Shown piece after piece: positions 2,851 to 21,913 of a stretch of 53,314 bases of DNA. The translations under genes were made by a program, and so were the position numbers. Positions within the stretch are counted from its first letter, which is position 1. Every line of letters starts with the position of its first letter. Below the pieces are notes generated by a model. It made no database searches, was not told the DNA's origin, and saw only the letters and a program-made list of their open reading frames with translations. The stretch is from a virus (taxonomy: Duplodnaviria > Caudoviricetes). The stretch is from positions 1-53,314 of IMG/VR virus record IMGVR_UViG_3300033148_005268; one strand, 5' to 3'.

Positions 2851-4116
2851 ATGGCAGGGACATTAACATACGACAACACCACCCCGACGCCGCCTGAGGG
2901 CAGCCAGTGCATGATGGCGGAGGTGACTTCGGGCTCCGCGAATGCTTATATCACACGCTCGAGGGTCAATGCCAAGACTAGTTTCGTGCATCAACATCTT
3001 TACGTCGATGCTGAAGGCCTTGCAGACACAGAAGAATTCAAGACCCTTCAGGTCCTTGACTCAAGCGACAACATAGCAGCATATATCAGGATCTATGACG
3101 ACTCCGGCACGCTGAAATACGACTTCTACTGCTACGACGGGAGCCTTACGGCAAAGGTCACAGGGCAAACACTGAGCCTTCAGACTTGGTACGAGTTCGA
3201 GTACAAGTACGACATCGACGGCGAGGCCTGGGAGCTTAGGCTTGACGGAAGCTCAGTAGATAGTGGCAGCATCGGCGGCGCAACGCGCACGCCACGCAAA
3301 GTCAGCACCGGGATCATAGGATGCACGGGCTCCGGCACGACACGGGTCTATATTGATGATGTGGTGTGGCGCACGGATAATTGGCAAAGCGCTTATGTAA
3401 CTTCGGGGTCTCTTGCCCTAAGTGTAATATCCAGCCTAAGTGATACAGCTCTTGCTTCCAGCTCTGGCAGCCTATCTCTTGCGGCCCTGCTGGCACTCTC
3501 GGAAATTGGCTTGGGCTCCACGTATGGCGCTCTTGGGCTAGGAGCGATTTCTACAACCTCACAATCGTCTCTAGCAAGCGCACTATCTTCTTTAACGCTG
3601 TCTGGCATCGCGACCGAGCAGCATATAGGAGTCGCGGATTCTGCCGGCTTATTAAGCCTACAAGCGATCGCAACTATCGCGCAGGTTGGAGCGAATGTGA
3701 TCTTGGCCTCACTAGCTTTAGGTGCATCTGCAGGACAATCGCAGCTTTCAATTGCGACGGCTGTCGGCGACACCACGCTGGCTGGAGGTCTTGGGCTCTC
3801 GAACCAAGGCACAGCGCAAACTCTCGCTACTGTTTCGATGCCAGTCAGTGCGGTAATCACGGAATCCGCAATAGCACAAGCAATAGCAGATACCTCGTTG
3901 GGTGCAATTCTGACCCAGGCCCAAACAGGCTCACTAGGCGCAATAGTCGCAGCGACCTTTGCTGCTGCGGCTCAGGCAGGTCTAATAACCTCTGCCACAA
4001 AGACAGTCACTGTAGCTACGACATTCGACGTCGGCGGCGAAAGCGTGCCGGATACGCTCCTGGATGTCGATGGCAGGCTGTATAGAAGAATCAACGATAA
4101 GTTAATTCCATTATAG
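2851..4116 (+). CDS. Tail appendage protein: ConA/lectin-like N-domain plus Ala/Ser/Leu/Gly-rich repeat shaft
   Basis: 421-aa ORF; TWYEFEY...VYIDDV pattern; repeated SLAL/GAI-type segments; in frame with the preceding TAG. Confidence 0.6.
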   Translation: MAGTLTYDNTTPTPPEGSQCMMAEVTSGSANAYITRSRVNAKTSFVHQHLYVDAEGLADTEEFKTLQVLDSSDNIAAYIRIYDDSGTLKYDFYCYDGSLTAKVTGQTLSLQTWYEFEYKYDIDGEAWELRLDGSSVDSGSIGGATRTPRKVSTGIIGCTGSGTTRVYIDDVVWRTDNWQSAYVTSGSLALSVISSLSDTALASSSGSLSLAALLALSEIGLGSTYGALGLGAISTTSQSSLASALSSLTLSGIATEQHIGVADSAGLLSLQAIATIAQVGANVILASLALGASAGQSQLSIATAVGDTTLAGGLGLSNQGTAQTLATVSMPVSAVITESAIAQAIADTSLGAILTQAQTGSLGAIVAATFAAAAQAGLITSATKTVTVATTFDVGGESVPDTLLDVDGRLYRRINDKLIPL

Positions 4117-18816: not shown

Positions 18817-19023
18817 TTAGAATCCTTTTGTTGGTTGTCTGCTTCTAAACACAAGCTCCCCCGGTCCAACCATCACAAAATCCCCATGCGGAGCCTCCAT
18901 GATGACGACCGGGTATTCTGGGGTGTAAACATCAAGGTCGGCCGGCTCAAGGCCGGGGGCGAATAATAAGACAAGAGCGAAGATAATGAGAATAATAGCG
19001 GTTGAGATGAGTTGTGGTTTCAT
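18817..19023 (-). CDS. Small signal-anchored protein
   Basis: Hydrophobic N-terminus; ATGA coupling. Confidence 0.5.
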   Translation of the reverse strand: MKPQLISTAIILIIFALVLLFAPGLEPADLDVYTPEYPVVIMEAPHGDFVMVGPGELVFRSRQPTKGF

Positions 19024-19391
19024 TTCTTTCCGGCCTCTAGCATTTCTAGGATATCTTTCTTGATCTTGTCAAAGGCACTACTTGCCTTATCAACAGCTTT
19101 TTCTACGCTACCGTATGTCGTCTCCTTAGCGACTAGCATCGTGATAACCTCTTTACGCGACGGCGTAAGCATGGCAATCAAGGTGCTGATTGCAGCGACT
19201 GCAATAGAAACCCTCATAGCTCTGACGATTTTTCTGCGCTCGTCATTCTCAGGGTCTTCTATCCATAAAAAGCCCATCAATAGTGCACACGTGGTCCCAA
19301 AAATTGCAGCGAGTACAGTCGCGACTATTCCAAGACTGTCAAGCCTCCCCATCAGATAGATTAGCCATGGGCTTATTATTGGATCGTTCAT
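19020..19391 (-). CDS. Two-TM phage membrane protein
   Basis: MNDPIISPWLIYL...; two hydrophobic helices, then TPSRKEVITMLVA. Confidence 0.7.
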   Translation of the reverse strand: MNDPIISPWLIYLMGRLDSLGIVATVLAAIFGTTCALLMGFLWIEDPENDERRKIVRAMRVSIAVAAISTLIAMLTPSRKEVITMLVAKETTYGSVEKAVDKASSAFDKIKKDILEMLEAGKK

Positions 19392-19458
19392 TATTTCACC
19401 TCTCTCAGCTCCACCTTGACCTCGTCGCAACTTTTAAGACGGCGGTTCAGTAACAGTC

Positions 19459-19551
19459 TCATAATCCCCACCACAGCACCTCCACCCACAGCCAGCGGCA
19501 GAACCAGCCGAGGGCAAAGGCCAATATGAATACGATAACTAATTCAAGCAT
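19459..19551 (-). CDS. 30-aa Trp-rich membrane peptide
   Basis: AAGGAG RBS; my translation: MLELVIVFILAFALGWFCRWLWVEVLWWGL*. Confidence 0.45.
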   Translation of the reverse strand: MLELVIVFILAFALGWFCRWLWVEVLWWGL

Positions 19552-19574
19552 TTTAAACTCCTTATGGGTGAGAT

Positions 19575-19602
19575 GGGCGGCAGGATCCCCTTCCCGCCGC
19601 CC
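19575..19602 (-). other. GC-rich hairpin closing the RNA cassette
   Basis: GGGCGGCGGGA/TCCTGCCGCCC, 11 bp; no U-tract. Confidence 0.6.
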
Positions 19603-19606
19603 AAGC

Positions 19607-19681
19607 TGGAGCTGATTGCAGGAATCGAACCTGCTCACATAGGTCTTGCGACCTATTGCTCTACCGTTGAGCTAAATCAAC
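19607..19681 (-). tRNA. Atypical tRNA (75 nt, encoded CCA) with a 7-bp + GCAA tetraloop anticodon arm
   Basis: GTTGATT TA GCTC AACGGTA GAGC A ATAGGTC GCAA GACCTAT GTGA GCAGG TTCGATT CCTGC AATCAGC T CCA. Confidence 0.85.
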
Positions 19682-19688
19682 GGTGGGT

Positions 19689-19857
19689 GGCCATTCTCCT
19701 CTTTCGCTGATTGACTGGTTTCCCGCTAATGATTCCATGCTCTGGCCACTGAGCTACTGCGCCATTGTTTTTTTGGGGGCGCAGAGAGGATTCGAACCTC
19801 CGGCCTGGAAAGAGCTTTAGAACCAACCAACAGCTACTTAATAGAAGAATTTTCGCC
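19689..19857 (-). ncRNA. Circularly permuted tRNA mimic on a long stem (YrlA/Y-RNA-like)
   Basis: TTCCA GGCC GGAGG TTCGAAT CCTCT CTGCGCC C CCA AAAAAACAAT GGCGCAG TA GCTC AGTGGCCA GAGC A TGGAA; the flanking sequences pair into an extended helix. Confidence 0.8.
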
Positions 19858-19888
19858 TGAAGCTGTAGGCTCAAAAAGCTAACAACGT

Positions 19889-19918
19889 ACTATCGCTAAA
19901 ACTTAAACTGATGCTGAG
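19889..19918 (-). repeat. Five tandem hexamers NNNAGY
   Basis: CTCAGC ATCAGT TTAAGT TTTAGC GATAGT. Confidence 0.7.
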
Positions 19919-19926
19919 CCCAAACC

Positions 19927-20673
19927 TTAAGATGCGTTAATAAAATCGAACAACTCCTTCCCAATTGTTACATGCACGACTTCTGTAGCGTTTGCTTTCT
20001 GTCGTGCTTTTTTTGTGGCCCTGATTAACTTATCAAGTCTACCAAGAATCGTCGACTTCTCTGCTGGCGAAAGCATCCCGCACCACTGATTTTCGATGTA
20101 TTTCCCGACATTCTCCGTCTCTTCCCACTTCTCAATCTGTGCTGGATGCTCTTTTGTTGCTTCATACAGCACCTTGTGGCGGAAGGTACGAGCTGTTTTA
20201 AATTTTTCTTCAGGATGAACTCTCCTATAAACATGAGCCCCCTTACTTTCATCTGGCTCCCACTTGACTCCTGGTGGTAATGTTGGAATTACATCATATA
20301 CGGATCGAATCGTTTTCAGTTTGTTTTCCAACCCAAGAAGAAATGTCGCAGGGACATCCGATGCTAGCGTAACACCATCAACAACAAGGTCGGCCCTGGC
20401 CTCTTGGTTTGTTCGTTCTTTTTGGAGGACGGCATCGAGATATCGGATTATATGATCCGCCTGATATTCAAGCTTTTCTTGTACGGTTGTTTGAAGTTCC
20501 TGATATTCATCGGGAGCTTTTGGAGCATTTTCGTCAAACATTTCAAGCGTTTTATGACGCCCGAAAAAATGAGCTGGCCTTTTTTGGAATGTGGTTTTTG
20601 TTTCTTCTAGGGCCTTTCGGTAAGCGCTCTCAATATTTCCTTCTACGGCCAATAGTTCATGAAGCTTAGACAT
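19927..20673 (-). CDS. Uncharacterised 248-aa protein heading the RNA cassette
   Basis: MSKLHELLAVE...VPATFLLGLENKL...YEATKEHPAQIE...; AAGGAGG RBS; helical/coiled-coil character with a beta-rich insert. Confidence 0.85.
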   Translation of the reverse strand: MSKLHELLAVEGNIESAYRKALEETKTTFQKRPAHFFGRHKTLEMFDENAPKAPDEYQELQTTVQEKLEYQADHIIRYLDAVLQKERTNQEARADLVVDGVTLASDVPATFLLGLENKLKTIRSVYDVIPTLPPGVKWEPDESKGAHVYRRVHPEEKFKTARTFRHKVLYEATKEHPAQIEKWEETENVGKYIENQWCGMLSPAEKSTILGRLDKLIRATKKARQKANATEVVHVTIGKELFDFINAS

Positions 20674-20974
20674 AACGCTAATACCCTCCTTTCTATTGAT
20701 TTTGTGTTTTGGGCGCAGGCACCATACCGCCATAGATGCCGGGGAGATTGTCTGGTTGGCGGCCCCGTTTACGCCCGCTCTCCTTTTTCACTGCGTTTAC
20801 GTTAGCGTTTCGGCACCACCCCCTTCGTTTGATCAAAACCAGGGTTGAATCAAGCTATCACTTGACAATTTTTGTAGCCGAAACCCTGATTTTCTTATCG
20901 CAATCTGGCAATCGGAGGCGCCCCAGTGCTGAACCGTGGGCGATCGCAGTTAGCCGCGAATTGCGATGGTACGC

Positions 20975-21003
20975 ACGTTAGCGGATTATCAAATGCTTGT
21001 CAA
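20975..21003 (-). promoter_or_regulatory. Leftward sigma70-type promoter (early operon)
   Basis: TTGACA-17 nt-TAACGT on the minus strand. Confidence 0.5.
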
Positions 21004-21039
21004 GAGGTTTTTTTGACTTGGCTGTGAAAAAAGCTTCGG

Positions 21040-21068
21040 TTGACAATGTTTTGTCCGTTTTGTATCAT
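21040..21068 (+). promoter_or_regulatory. Rightward sigma70-type promoter, probably giving a near-leaderless mRNA
   Basis: TTGACA-17 nt-TATCAT; ATG at 21078 with no RBS. Confidence 0.65.
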
Positions 21069-21077
21069 GCCCGCATT

Positions 21078-21272
21078 ATGTTTACGAAACCGTATCTCAA
21101 AGACTGGATGAGACGAAACCGCCAGGTCAAGCTTCACCACCTTGCTAAAGCCGCAGGGGTTGGCACCTGGTCCCTGTGGCGCTTCCTGAATCAAAAGGAC
21201 GCTACCATTACCCTAAAGACCGCCGAAAGGGTTGAAAAGGCGATGCAGCTGCTGGAAGAAAATGTCCGCTAA
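21078..21272 (+). CDS. Cro-like HTH regulator
   Basis: LHHLAKAAGVGTWSLWRFLN HTH; first gene of the rightward operon. Confidence 0.7.
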   Translation: MFTKPYLKDWMRRNRQVKLHHLAKAAGVGTWSLWRFLNQKDATITLKTAERVEKAMQLLEENVR

Positions 21273-21654
21273 ACGGATCACGCAAACCATTAACTCCAGA
21301 TGGCTGGCTCGGGCTCGGAAGCTTGGCTTTAAATCTGAGCTGGAGCTATGGGAGACCGTGCACTGGACCATAACCGCCTCAGAGCTTGCGGCGATGATGG
21401 GGGTTACGGATCAGACAGTCCGTAACCGTATGAAACGCCACGGCCTGCGCGCTGTATACGACAGGCGTAAAGGTGTTAAAAACGTCTGTGTCGCGCGAAA
21501 TAGGCTAAGGGCCTCAAGGCGTAGGACGAAAAAGGTAACACACTGCGTTAAGTGTGGGAAAAAGCTGTCCATGTACCAGGTCAAAAACATCTGCTGGGCG
21601 TGTCAGGGCACAGGCTTTGTTGGAGGCGATAATCCGAAGTGCTCGCCGATGTAA
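21262..21654 (+). CDS. HTH + Zn-ribbon protein
   Basis: TASELAAMMGVTDQTVRNRMKRHGL; CVKC...CWAC. Confidence 0.65.
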   Translation: MSAKRITQTINSRWLARARKLGFKSELELWETVHWTITASELAAMMGVTDQTVRNRMKRHGLRAVYDRRKGVKNVCVARNRLRASRRRTKKVTHCVKCGKKLSMYQVKNICWACQGTGFVGGDNPKCSPM

Positions 21655-21759
21655 TGGGCGGTGAGACCGATACAGATGCGGCCAATGGCGTTATTCCATC
21701 GGTTTGACAAGTTGGCCGGGATTAGTCTGTACGGCACGCCCATCAGCAAAGAATTTTTG

Positions 21760-21787
21760 TTGACACGGATGGATTTTAAAATAAAAT
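21760..21787 (+). promoter_or_regulatory. Possible sigma70 promoter for replication genes
   Basis: TTGACA-16 nt-TAAAAT. Confidence 0.45.
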
Positions 21788-21831
21788 GCTGGACATGACA
21801 AAACAGTTGTATGTTGAAAAGTTTAAAGATG

Positions 21832-21913
21832 CAAAAAGCTCTTGGAATCCGAGTTTCGTAAGGGCTCGGGGGGATGCAACTGCCCTTGTCGTTCCAAGAG
21901 CTTTTTGTGTTTT
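21832..21913 (+). promoter_or_regulatory. Structured leader / attenuator before the replication initiator
   Basis: 16-bp perfect inverted repeat CAAAAAGCTCTTGGAA/TTCCAAGAGCTTTTTG enclosing a GTAA-capped hairpin, followed by a U-rich tract. Confidence 0.55.

Follow-up and report, generated by a model that had tools for sequence, protein, structure and literature searches.

Y RNAs have hitherto been defined by their protein partner, Ro60. YrlA RNAs occur near Ro60 genes in more than 250 bacteria and phages, and the Ro-binding motif has been defined as GNCGAAN0-1G (Chen et al. 2014, PMC4201824). YrlA has been published as a circularly permuted tRNA mimic, in which a T-arm, an acceptor hairpin and a D-arm are set on a terminal stem (10.1101/312249). 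In most YrlAs that have been characterised the acceptor is closed and RNase P does not cut it (PMC4201824, 10.1101/312249). In vitro, RNase P cleaves YrlA of Mycobacterium smegmatis, whose acceptor stem has 7 bp, and this RNA is found in vivo as halves of 82 and 65 nucleotides (nt), the first of which ends in CCA (PMC4201824). In the Thermus phage phiLo, Ro60-Yrl complexes bind the host PNPase (PMC12135203). Here we describe an RNA element of this architecture in a phage genome, the complete 53,314-bp IMG/VR record IMGVR_UViG_3300033148_005268 with direct terminal repeats at its ends (the window), where it follows a gene for a DUF7873 protein. Given the published architecture of YrlA, the layout as a permuted tRNA mimic is already known, a point absent from the first-pass annotation of this DNA, as was the finding that the element belongs to a larger module tied to DUF7873. 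What appears to be new is the coupling to DUF7873, the encoded CCA with an RNase P-type site, and the composite RNA of which the element forms part. No literature on DUF7873 or on its link to an RNA was found, in a coverage that did not extend to the supplementary phage YrlA tables of Chen et al. 2014, which possibly include phages with DUF7873.

Read on the minus strand from 19857 to 19689, the element consists of T-arm, acceptor 3' strand, C-CCA, a 10-nt linker, acceptor 5' strand and D-arm, in this permuted order. The first-pass annotation had proposed a tRNA mimic in circularly permuted order, borne by a long stem, and all the pieces that it listed are present on this strand (Table 1). The anticodon stem has no loop and runs on into a helix with about 45 nt in either strand, where CTAA/TTAG, TTGGTTGGTT/AACCAGTCAA, GCTG/CAGC, ATTCTTCT/AGGAGAAT and GGC/GCC all pair, with three G-U pairs among them. 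In this the element departs from a permuted gene for a decoding tRNA, whose anticodon loop is restored by processing. It was also correctly foreseen that standard tRNA finders would miss the element, as ARAGORN and the Rfam tRNA model report only the adjoining segment 19681-19607. Folded alone, the 169 nt reach -53.1 kcal/mol, compared with -45.9 +/- 3.8 for shuffled sequences (z = -1.91; 4 of 200 shuffles as good). By itself this fold exceeds chance only slightly; it is the comparison of relatives that decides.

DNA searches gave no match to the locus among 50,697 GenBank phages (blastn with 401 nt; megablast with 6 kb), and a single-protein locus search with DUF7873 yielded no confirmed relative, an alignment being needed. 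An alignment of 21 DUF7873 homologs (A1) served as the query that fetched 80 phage loci, and inspection by eye and with a regular expression revealed the permuted series 3' of the gene in most of them. A second alignment (A2) holds 40 non-redundant permuted elements with linkers of at most 20 nt, drawn from 65 sequences that matched a regular expression. In A2, 92.5% of cells were paired compared with 60.7% in shuffles, a percentage inflated for the T, acceptor and D helices, whose pairing the regular expression had demanded. The anticodon-like stem (helix 1) was not demanded and thus not pre-selected; all five of its pairs showed double-sided changes, with 76.5% of cells paired. For the acceptor helix, double-sided changes were seen in 7 of 7 pairs and 98.9% of cells were paired. 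Across the core, 20 of 21 pairs changed on both sides, none of 500 shuffles reached the observed covariation score, and sliding the partners by 1-3 columns reduced pairing to 36-49%. All four helices of the tRNA-like module are backed by covariation. The bases G53, T54, T55, C56, A58, C61 and A14 are invariant in the 40 sequences, and U8, G18, A21 and the CCA columns are conserved in at least 90%.

A covariance model built from the relatives (R1) was run over 486 kb on both strands, a scan that removes the pre-selection bias of the regular expression. It recovered the element at 76.3 bits (E ~5e-24) as the sole real match across the 53 kb of the window, and both the window and 72 of the 80 phage loci gave one match of 47-90 bits 3' of DUF7873 and in the orientation of that gene. 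The loci without such a match are accounted for: a real element is present in L075 (42.7 bits) and in L049 (143-nt linker), less than 200 nt of downstream DNA is available in the truncated loci L025, L058 and L069, tRNA arrays stand in its place in L026 and L027, and L046 holds the 3' half alone. In L046, T-arm, acceptor 3' strand and U-CCA follow DUF7873 (3409-3496) and a protein gene begins at the site of the 5' half; either the copy has decayed or its halves are arranged separately. Weaker R1 matches, of up to ~45 bits, were junctions of tandem tRNAs. A second match of 56.5 bits in L071 (4250-4338), about 800 nt 3' of the first, is a second copy or such a junction. Among cellular genomes, R1 matched 17 of 46 DUF7873 loci, mostly in metagenome-assembled genomes of Cytophagales and Saprospiraceae. 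Two cultured phages have the RNA after DUF7873, and in both the pair is located within a tRNA gene cluster: Rhizobium phage RHph_Y65 (64.3 bits, in unannotated DNA; element at 3440-3542 of its locus, L128) and Vibrio phage K479 (47.9 bits; element at 3447-3554 of its locus, L129). The RNA region of K479 carries an annotation as a small minus-strand coding sequence (locus 3408-3563), which is probably spurious.

The flanks that form the long stem vary in sequence between loci yet still pair. Duplexes formed by the two flanks of the same locus had a mean energy of -23.2 kcal/mol, compared with -13.9 for flanks from different loci (65 versus 388 comparisons, p ~1e-22). A lack of covariation in the extended stem had been named in the first-pass annotation as a sign against the mimic, and these duplexes point the other way.

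The element begins about 70 nt past the DUF7873 stop codon, and no conserved neighbour family was found among 72 upstream and 55 downstream open reading frames (ORFs) of the loci, which leaves the RNA as the only constant companion of DUF7873. We also searched in the reverse direction, scanning viral contigs for the signature of T-loop, CCA and D-arm, which gave at least 120 matches, of which 80 loci were analysed. Among the matches listed, DUF7873 stands directly upstream of 8 of the 16 elements with complementary acceptor strands and upstream of none of the 64 tandem-tRNA matches, in which the acceptor strands pair at 0-5 of 7 positions. The unannotated neighbours of two elements that lack DUF7873 (L205 and L185) were considered as relatives of DUF7873 and rejected (hhalign probability 0.1-0.2).

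Acceptor ends were compared in 65 members parsed out of 68 distinct sequences. N-CCA stands straight after the 7-nt 3' strand in 57 of the 65, where chance would give 1 in 64 per sequence, and inspection by eye adds L004 and L051. The discriminator of the 57 is U in 23, G in 18, A in 9 and C in 7. Linkers of the parsed members span 3-79 nt, with a median of 12 nt and 71% A+U; that of L049, as noted, is far longer. The bases before the 5' strand follow a U-R-U pattern, with U at -3 in 52 of 65, A (42) or G (20) at -2 and U at -1 in 37 of 65, and position +1 is G in 40 members. Nine members lack the CCA (eight parsed and L013 by eye), their acceptor helix being lengthened, as judged by eye, through further pairing, and five members are able to pair the CCA with UGG at the end of the linker. 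The 1:72 pair is variable, and G-U occurs at 3:70 in a single one of the 65 members, the window having C:G there. Two identity readings made from the window alone do not survive this comparison: with a variable discriminator and U rather than G at -1, C73 is not His-like, and descent from tRNA-Met, read from GGAATCAT, fails because this stretch is not conserved.

Bacterial RNase P relies on an acceptor of 7 bp that stacks on a T stem of 5 bp, on G+1 and U-1, and on a single-stranded RCCA. The acceptor of the window has 7 bp, G+1, U-1, an encoded, single-stranded C-CCA and an unstructured A/U-rich linker. The hairpin has all the sequence features of a bacterial RNase P substrate, and from these we infer a cut between 19764 and 19763. 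By these features, and by analogy with the cleaved YrlA of M. smegmatis, cleavage into a two-piece, CCA-ended RNA is likely, and its ends would lie at 19774 and 19763. Of the two-piece RNA put forward in the first-pass annotation, the RNase P step is thus plausible, given the N-CCA, the 7-bp stem, the U-R-U leader and the M. smegmatis precedent; the analogy with permuted tmRNAs that came with it is not supported, as set out below.

The resemblance to YrlA, which had been pointed out in the first-pass annotation, is borne out over the full length: the Rfam YrlA model RF02553 aligns with positions 1-114 of its 114 at 29 bits (local E = 4e-4), far below its gathering score of 69. None of 20 relatives reached this cut-off, and the element of RHph_Y65 scored 36.2 bits. 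The element of mycobacteriophage Bxz1, which lies upstream of a Ro gene, scored 32.5 bits with the Rfam model and 30.9 bits with R1. Since a Ro60-linked RNA also falls under 69 bits, missing this threshold is weak evidence against membership. The order of modules on a terminal stem and the conserved elbow bases of the D- and T-loops are those of YrlA. The GGCGAA likened to the Ro motif is indeed present at the stem base of the window, where it is followed by AA and the closing G of the motif is absent; as a family trait it fails, as GNCGAAN0-1G occurs on the 5' strand in 3 of 68 sequences and on the 3' strand in just one, while GNCGAA by itself is found in 7 of 68. A YGAAAR motif is found on the 3' strand in 29 of 68.

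No TROVE (Ro60) gene was matched in the complete phage of the window. Among 39 related phage records, TROVE was found in four (three over the cut-off), and of the 19 records with a completeness of 90% or more it was found in one. Three of the four TROVE genes are within about 7 kb of DUF7873; the one in L040 (904-2508, plus strand), with TROVE and vWA_Ro60, is directly upstream. A few large phages, those of L040, L034 and L051, thus carry Ro60 next to or near DUF7873 and its RNA. The Ro60 and DUF7873 systems co-occur and may cooperate. Among the reverse-scan matches listed, L140 (~5924, minus strand) has a permuted core with a 7-bp acceptor and C-CCA directly upstream of a TROVE + vWA_Ro60 gene. 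The L140 RNA is flanked by repeated 'UUUAGAGCCG...GGGUUAUC' motifs, which are absent from the DUF7873-linked RNAs. One RNA core thus turns up beside Ro60, beside DUF7873 and in further settings, and the element of the window is a YrlA-class RNA with a different partner and a different acceptor end.

We therefore favour, with a probability of about 60%, a YrlA-class RNA that is opened by RNase P and acts in a ribonucleoprotein (RNP) with DUF7873 that exploits tRNA mimicry. An early leftward promoter would yield the DUF7873 gene and the RNA in one transcript. The transcript would then present, in this order, a hexamer-repeat hairpin, the permuted tRNA mimic on its stem, an anticodon-less tRNA-like structure and a hairpin with an AGGNNA loop. 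The mimic would fold into an L-shaped head whose 'anticodon stem' extends into the locus-specific stem made by both flanks. Host RNase P would cut at the junction given above, exonucleases would trim the upstream piece back to C-CCA, and the product would be a nicked two-piece RNA, kept together by the acceptor and long stems like M. smegmatis YrlA. DUF7873 would replace Ro60 as the dedicated partner, and the tRNA-shaped head, with its elbow and free CCA, may engage a tRNA-recognising factor of the host, tether it or serve as a decoy for it. A more specific form of this proposal, which we regard as doubtful, is that DUF7873 and the composite RNA make up a Ro60-independent phage RNP in which a protein oligomer sits on the hexamer and AGGNNA hairpins and the opened CCA head is presented to a host enzyme as an early decoy or hijacker. 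Candidate host targets in that case are a tRNA-targeting defence toxin, the CCA-adding enzyme, a synthetase and the ribosome.

Several observations weigh against the proposed RNP. Only genome position links DUF7873 with the RNA, DUF7873 is missing from half of the permuted elements among the reverse-scan matches listed, and some cellular copies of DUF7873, such as the chromosomal one of a Bernardetia sp., are not followed by the RNA. Searches of PDB sequences with the protein profile, of structures with Foldseek and of the ESM Atlas revealed no recognisable RNA-binding fold in DUF7873, and its isoelectric point is neutral (6.8 in the window; median 7.1 over 99 homologs). With the Ro-binding motif absent as a family trait, the name 'Y RNA' rests on the tRNA-like module alone, and the YrlA score is far from its threshold. 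The members without CCA and those that can pair it with UGG imply that a free CCA end is not universally required, and the inflated pairing of the pre-selected helices belongs on the same side.

An uncut, closed-loop mimic of YrlA type, whose acceptor hairpin stays shut like that of Salmonella YrlA and whose N-CCA and U-R-U are read in the loop by a protein or form a specific loop fold, would leave the rest of the model standing. Such an RNA would conform to most characterised YrlAs, it would explain the members with extended closed helices or with CCA paired to UGG, and the loop of L040 is just 7 nt (ACCA + TAT). However, linkers of 3-143 nt without conserved sequence fit a discarded spacer better than a recognised loop, the 7-bp stem, G+1, U-1 and N-CCA are RNase P determinants, and the sole 7-bp YrlA tested was cleaved (PMC4201824); we consider the uncut form possible, if on the unlikely side. 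The RNA might also act only in cis, as a processing or stability module that defines a protected 3' end of the DUF7873 mRNA, comparable to MALAT1/mascRNA or tRNA-punctuated operons; the tRNA-like structures would then serve only to have RNase P, with RNase Z or exonucleases, cut the polycistronic early transcript. The RNA starts within about 10 nt of the DUF7873 stop codon with no promoter-like site between them, a second tRNA-like structure is found in 25 of 65 loci, the loss of the anticodon loop in the window would suit a purely structural role, and DUF7873 often lies inside tRNA gene clusters. For this purpose, however, a single tRNA or terminator would suffice, leaving the permuted order, the covarying 45-nt stem and the hexamer and AGGNNA hairpins superfluous, and the same core accompanies Ro60 in L140, a setting in which it is known to act in trans in an RNP. 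We regard a cis role as quite unlikely.

Improbable, too, is a classical Y RNA that works with Ro60 (Rsr) of the host, the phage RNA capturing or redirecting host Rsr and PNPase. The YrlA-like fold, the GGCGAA at the stem base, a CGAA in the internal loop of the window, the four related records with TROVE and the PNPase-bound complexes of phiLo (PMC12135203) are in line with it; the rarity of GNCGAAN0-1G on either strand and the lack of TROVE in the window phage and in 18 of the 19 related records with a completeness of 90% or more are not. The conserved encoded N-CCA, the full tRNA elbow and the RNase P-type site would also be expected if the two pieces formed a tRNA or a tmRNA-like RNA that can be charged, becomes aminoacylated and goes into the ribosome, and Chen et al. 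describe cleaved M. smegmatis YrlA as potentially aminoacylated (PMC4201824). The first-pass annotation had leaned this way by comparing the element with permuted tmRNAs. The matches to the permuted tmRNA models are weak and partial, covering T-arm and acceptor only (RF04321, 15.7 bits against a cut-off of 47; RF01851, 17.9 against 70). There is no conserved identity element, as discriminator and 1:72 pair vary and G3:U70 is all but absent, there is no anticodon, the repeat region shows a 6-nt rather than a 3-nt period with stop codons and no tag frame, and Foldseek finds no SmpB-like fold for DUF7873, which together make a chargeable RNA very improbable. An origin of the halves from a tandem pair of decayed tRNA genes, a concern also raised in the first-pass annotation, is refuted. 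Tandem tRNAs do match R1 weakly, an artefact flagged by Chen et al. (PMC4201824), but here the acceptor strands match each other and all 7 pairs show compensatory changes, unlike the strands of the true tandem tRNAs that make up 64 of the 80 matches listed, the outer flanks pair with each other, and the element occupies a fixed place in more than 70 loci.

Table 1. Features of the composite RNA and the DUF7873 gene in the window. Positions are those of the window; positions of mature ends and of the removed linker are predicted.
Feature	Position	Strand	Basis
DUF7873 gene, 248 aa, start MSKLHELL; longer ORF to 20733	19927..20673	-	Pfam PF25283
P1 hairpin (probable), GGGCTCA / TGAGCCT around degenerate hexamers NAGNNN (19914-19874)	19867..19921	-	sequence, minimum free energy fold
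Long irregular stem, 5' strand, with GGCGAA (19857-19852) and internal-loop segment ATTAAGTA	19811..19857	-	sequence, fold, flank duplexes
Anticodon-stem-like 5' strand TTCCA	19810-19806	-	pairs with TGGAA 19737-19733
Variable loop GGCC, 4 nt	19805-19802	-	sequence
T-arm GGAGG/TTCGAAT/CCTCT, 5-bp stem	19801-19785	-	alignment A2, covariation
Acceptor-stem 3' strand CTGCGCC	19784-19778	-	covariation
Discriminator C and encoded CCA; piece 1 predicted to end here after maturation, at 19774	19777-19774	-	N-CCA conservation
A-rich linker AAAAAACAAT, 10 nt; predicted to be removed	19773-19764	-	family linker statistics
Acceptor-stem 5' strand GGCGCAG; predicted 5' end of piece 2 at 19763	19763-19757	-	covariation, +1 = G
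U8-A9 (TA) and D-arm GCTC / AGTGGCCA / GAGC	19756..19739; D-arm 19754-19739	-	alignment A2, covariation
TGGAA (19737-19733), preceded by a single A, and long-stem 3' strand with internal-loop CAGC-GAAAG	19737..19689	-	fold, flank duplexes
Second tRNA-like structure, conventional order, encoded CCA, 7-bp helix and GCAA cap replacing the anticodon loop	19607..19681	-	ARAGORN, Rfam tRNA, fold
G/C-rich 11-bp hairpin, hexaloop AGGGGA (family loop A-AGGNNA-U), just before the ribosome-binding site of the next gene	19575..19602	-	sequence, fold

The permuted element is the middle domain of a composite RNA of about 350 nt. In a fold of 351 nt the domains remain separate (z = -3.1). The hexamer region, placed between the DUF7873 stop codon and the long stem, with units such as CAGCUU, UAGCGU, CAACUU, AAACUU and UUGGUG, shows 6-nt and 12-nt periodicity in 61 loci and no 3-nt periodicity, unlike a coding control; with its period of 6 nt it looks like a row of sites to which an oligomeric protein could bind. 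Tandem Repeats Finder reports period-6 arrays in L008 (3261-3289) and L049 (3261-3278) and no tandem repeat in the hexamer region of the window. The hairpin that encloses the hexamers (P1) is probable: a generic best-hairpin test did not separate real from shuffled sequences (7.75 versus 7.15; score of at least 6 in 65 real and 61 shuffled), a cross-locus duplex test was weakly significant (p = 0.016), and the arms of the closing stem, where identifiable, look compensatory by eye. A reading of the repeats as a tag peptide (frame AGC-NUN, Ser-hydrophobic repeats) was rejected on account of the 6-nt rather than 3-nt period, the frequent stops and the position, which for a tmRNA is on the wrong side of the acceptor.

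The second tRNA-like structure downstream of the stem is labelled 'tRNA-??? (gcaa)' by ARAGORN and scores 52.8 bits with the Rfam tRNA model; as a helix replaces its anticodon loop, it cannot decode. Where such structures directly follow the stem in other loci, their anticodons vary widely and include A34 types (AUA, AUG, AUU) as well as 'Ser-UGA' bodies without a long variable arm. In 44 of 68 loci the next 520 nt contain a conserved hairpin of the AGGNNA type, G/C-rich and about 11 bp long, with loops such as AGGCGA, AGGAUA and AGGGGA, and the exact motif of the window's hairpin occurs once in the window. It is only sometimes followed by a run of U and is therefore not simply a terminator.

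The DUF7873 protein of the window matches PF25283 over profile positions 1-242 of 244 (E = 3.2e-77, 260 bits against a cut-off of 27). It has 1591 homologs at E <= 0.001, all unnamed and many 58-73% identical to it, and the gene is present in 75 cultured phage records, including phages of Klebsiella, Serratia and Gordonia. Scans of NCBIfam, PADLOC and PHROGs gave no family for it. Its AlphaFold2 model (mean predicted local distance difference test score, pLDDT, 88.6; predicted template modelling score 0.74) has a long helix at either terminus, a body of alpha/beta type and an extended beta-hairpin (155-198), and the conserved basic residues concentrate in this beta-hairpin and a helix at ~218-227. 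Foldseek returned no match at E <= 0.001 against PDB and BFVD, the best hit of the profile to PDB sequences had E = 0.71, and the ESM Atlas yielded just DUF7873 itself and unnamed clusters. A likeness to Cas7/RAMP proteins among the weak top Foldseek chains was unsupported (best E = 2.1e-3, probability 0.16, template modelling score ~0.1) and was set aside; the appeal of such a match lay in the fact that Cas7 binds RNA in 6-nt steps.

The protein probably self-associates, as judged from structure prediction. Modelled in three copies it scored 0.57, the best of three controls scoring 0.00; of the proteins used for comparison, 20 of 30 with structures solved as one-chain pairs reach this mark, as does 1 of 23 with single-chain structures, a calibration for homo-oligomers that is only rough given three copies and an author-made alignment. 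The three-copy runs share at least 89% of contacts with partner pLDDT of at least 80, and the predicted interface is symmetric and rich in residues that are invariant in the family.

A promoter scan covered positions 18900-21900 of the window. The sole promoter-like site upstream of the DUF7873 gene on the minus strand is at 21801-21773 and points away from the replication genes, and none was seen between the gene and the RNA; from its position we infer that DUF7873 and the RNA share one early leftward transcript. On the same strand downstream lie a 30-codon ORF and several small ORFs, followed by genes for a RecE-type exonuclease and a RecT-type annealing protein. The 30-codon ORF (19459-19551, minus strand), directly after the RNA module, has a strong Shine-Dalgarno sequence and encodes a very hydrophobic, Trp-rich peptide (MLELVIVFILAFALGWF...).

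With the same head in more than 70 metagenomic loci and two cultured phages, tied to another highly conserved protein, the tRNA-shaped module suggests a transferable adaptor for more than one RNP. If the proposed RNP is real, tRNA-shaped Y-like RNAs would be a general adaptor platform that was taken up independently by Ro60, DUF7873 and others. For DUF7873, with about 1600 homologs and none annotated, the RNA provides a first functional lead, and the cultured phages of Rhizobium and Vibrio are tractable systems in which to ask what the tRNA mimic recruits. In the genomes of cultured phages, these stretches of about 350 nt at present lack annotation or lie under spurious small ORFs.

Among known systems, MALAT1 mascRNA and the viral 3' tRNA-like structures also use tRNA-like folds, for RNase P-dependent formation of ends or to bring tRNA enzymes to an RNA that is not a tRNA; unlike the window element, these are eukaryotic or from RNA viruses, are not permuted and have no dedicated protein gene. 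In the permuted tRNA genes of Cyanidioschyzon merolae the 3' half likewise precedes the 5' half, and RNase P or RNase Z opens the acceptor end. Those genes mature through a circular intermediate into decoding tRNAs, whereas the anticodon stem of the window element runs into the ~45-nt stem. Two-piece tmRNA shares the order of T-arm, acceptor 3' strand, CCA, spacer and acceptor 5' strand, and it matures into two base-paired pieces, as the window RNA would after cleavage; its degenerate D-arm, G3:U70, pseudoknots, tag frame and SmpB have no counterpart here. The Ro60-linked Y RNA-like RNAs of phages (Bxz1; phiLo Yrl1/2, PMC12135203; L140) are also phage-borne and share the tRNA-like core, but they sit beside Ro60, none is reported with DUF7873, and the acceptor hairpin of Bxz1 is closed and without CCA. 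YrlA of Salmonella Typhimurium (RF02553, 10.1101/312249) is, like the window element, a permuted mimic on a stem formed by its ends, without an anticodon loop and with the tRNA tertiary-contact bases conserved. It differs in its closed 6-bp acceptor without CCA, its Ro motif and its rsr-yrlBA-rtcBA operon, where the window element has a 7-bp acceptor, an encoded N-CCA with linker, no Ro60 and DUF7873 as its neighbour. The closest mechanistic precedent is M. smegmatis YrlA (PMC4201824), which shares the 7-bp acceptor and whose two pieces stay together; there, CA is added after cleavage and the RNA is encoded next to Rsr and bound by it, whereas in the phage the CCA is fully encoded, Rsr is absent and cleavage is a prediction.

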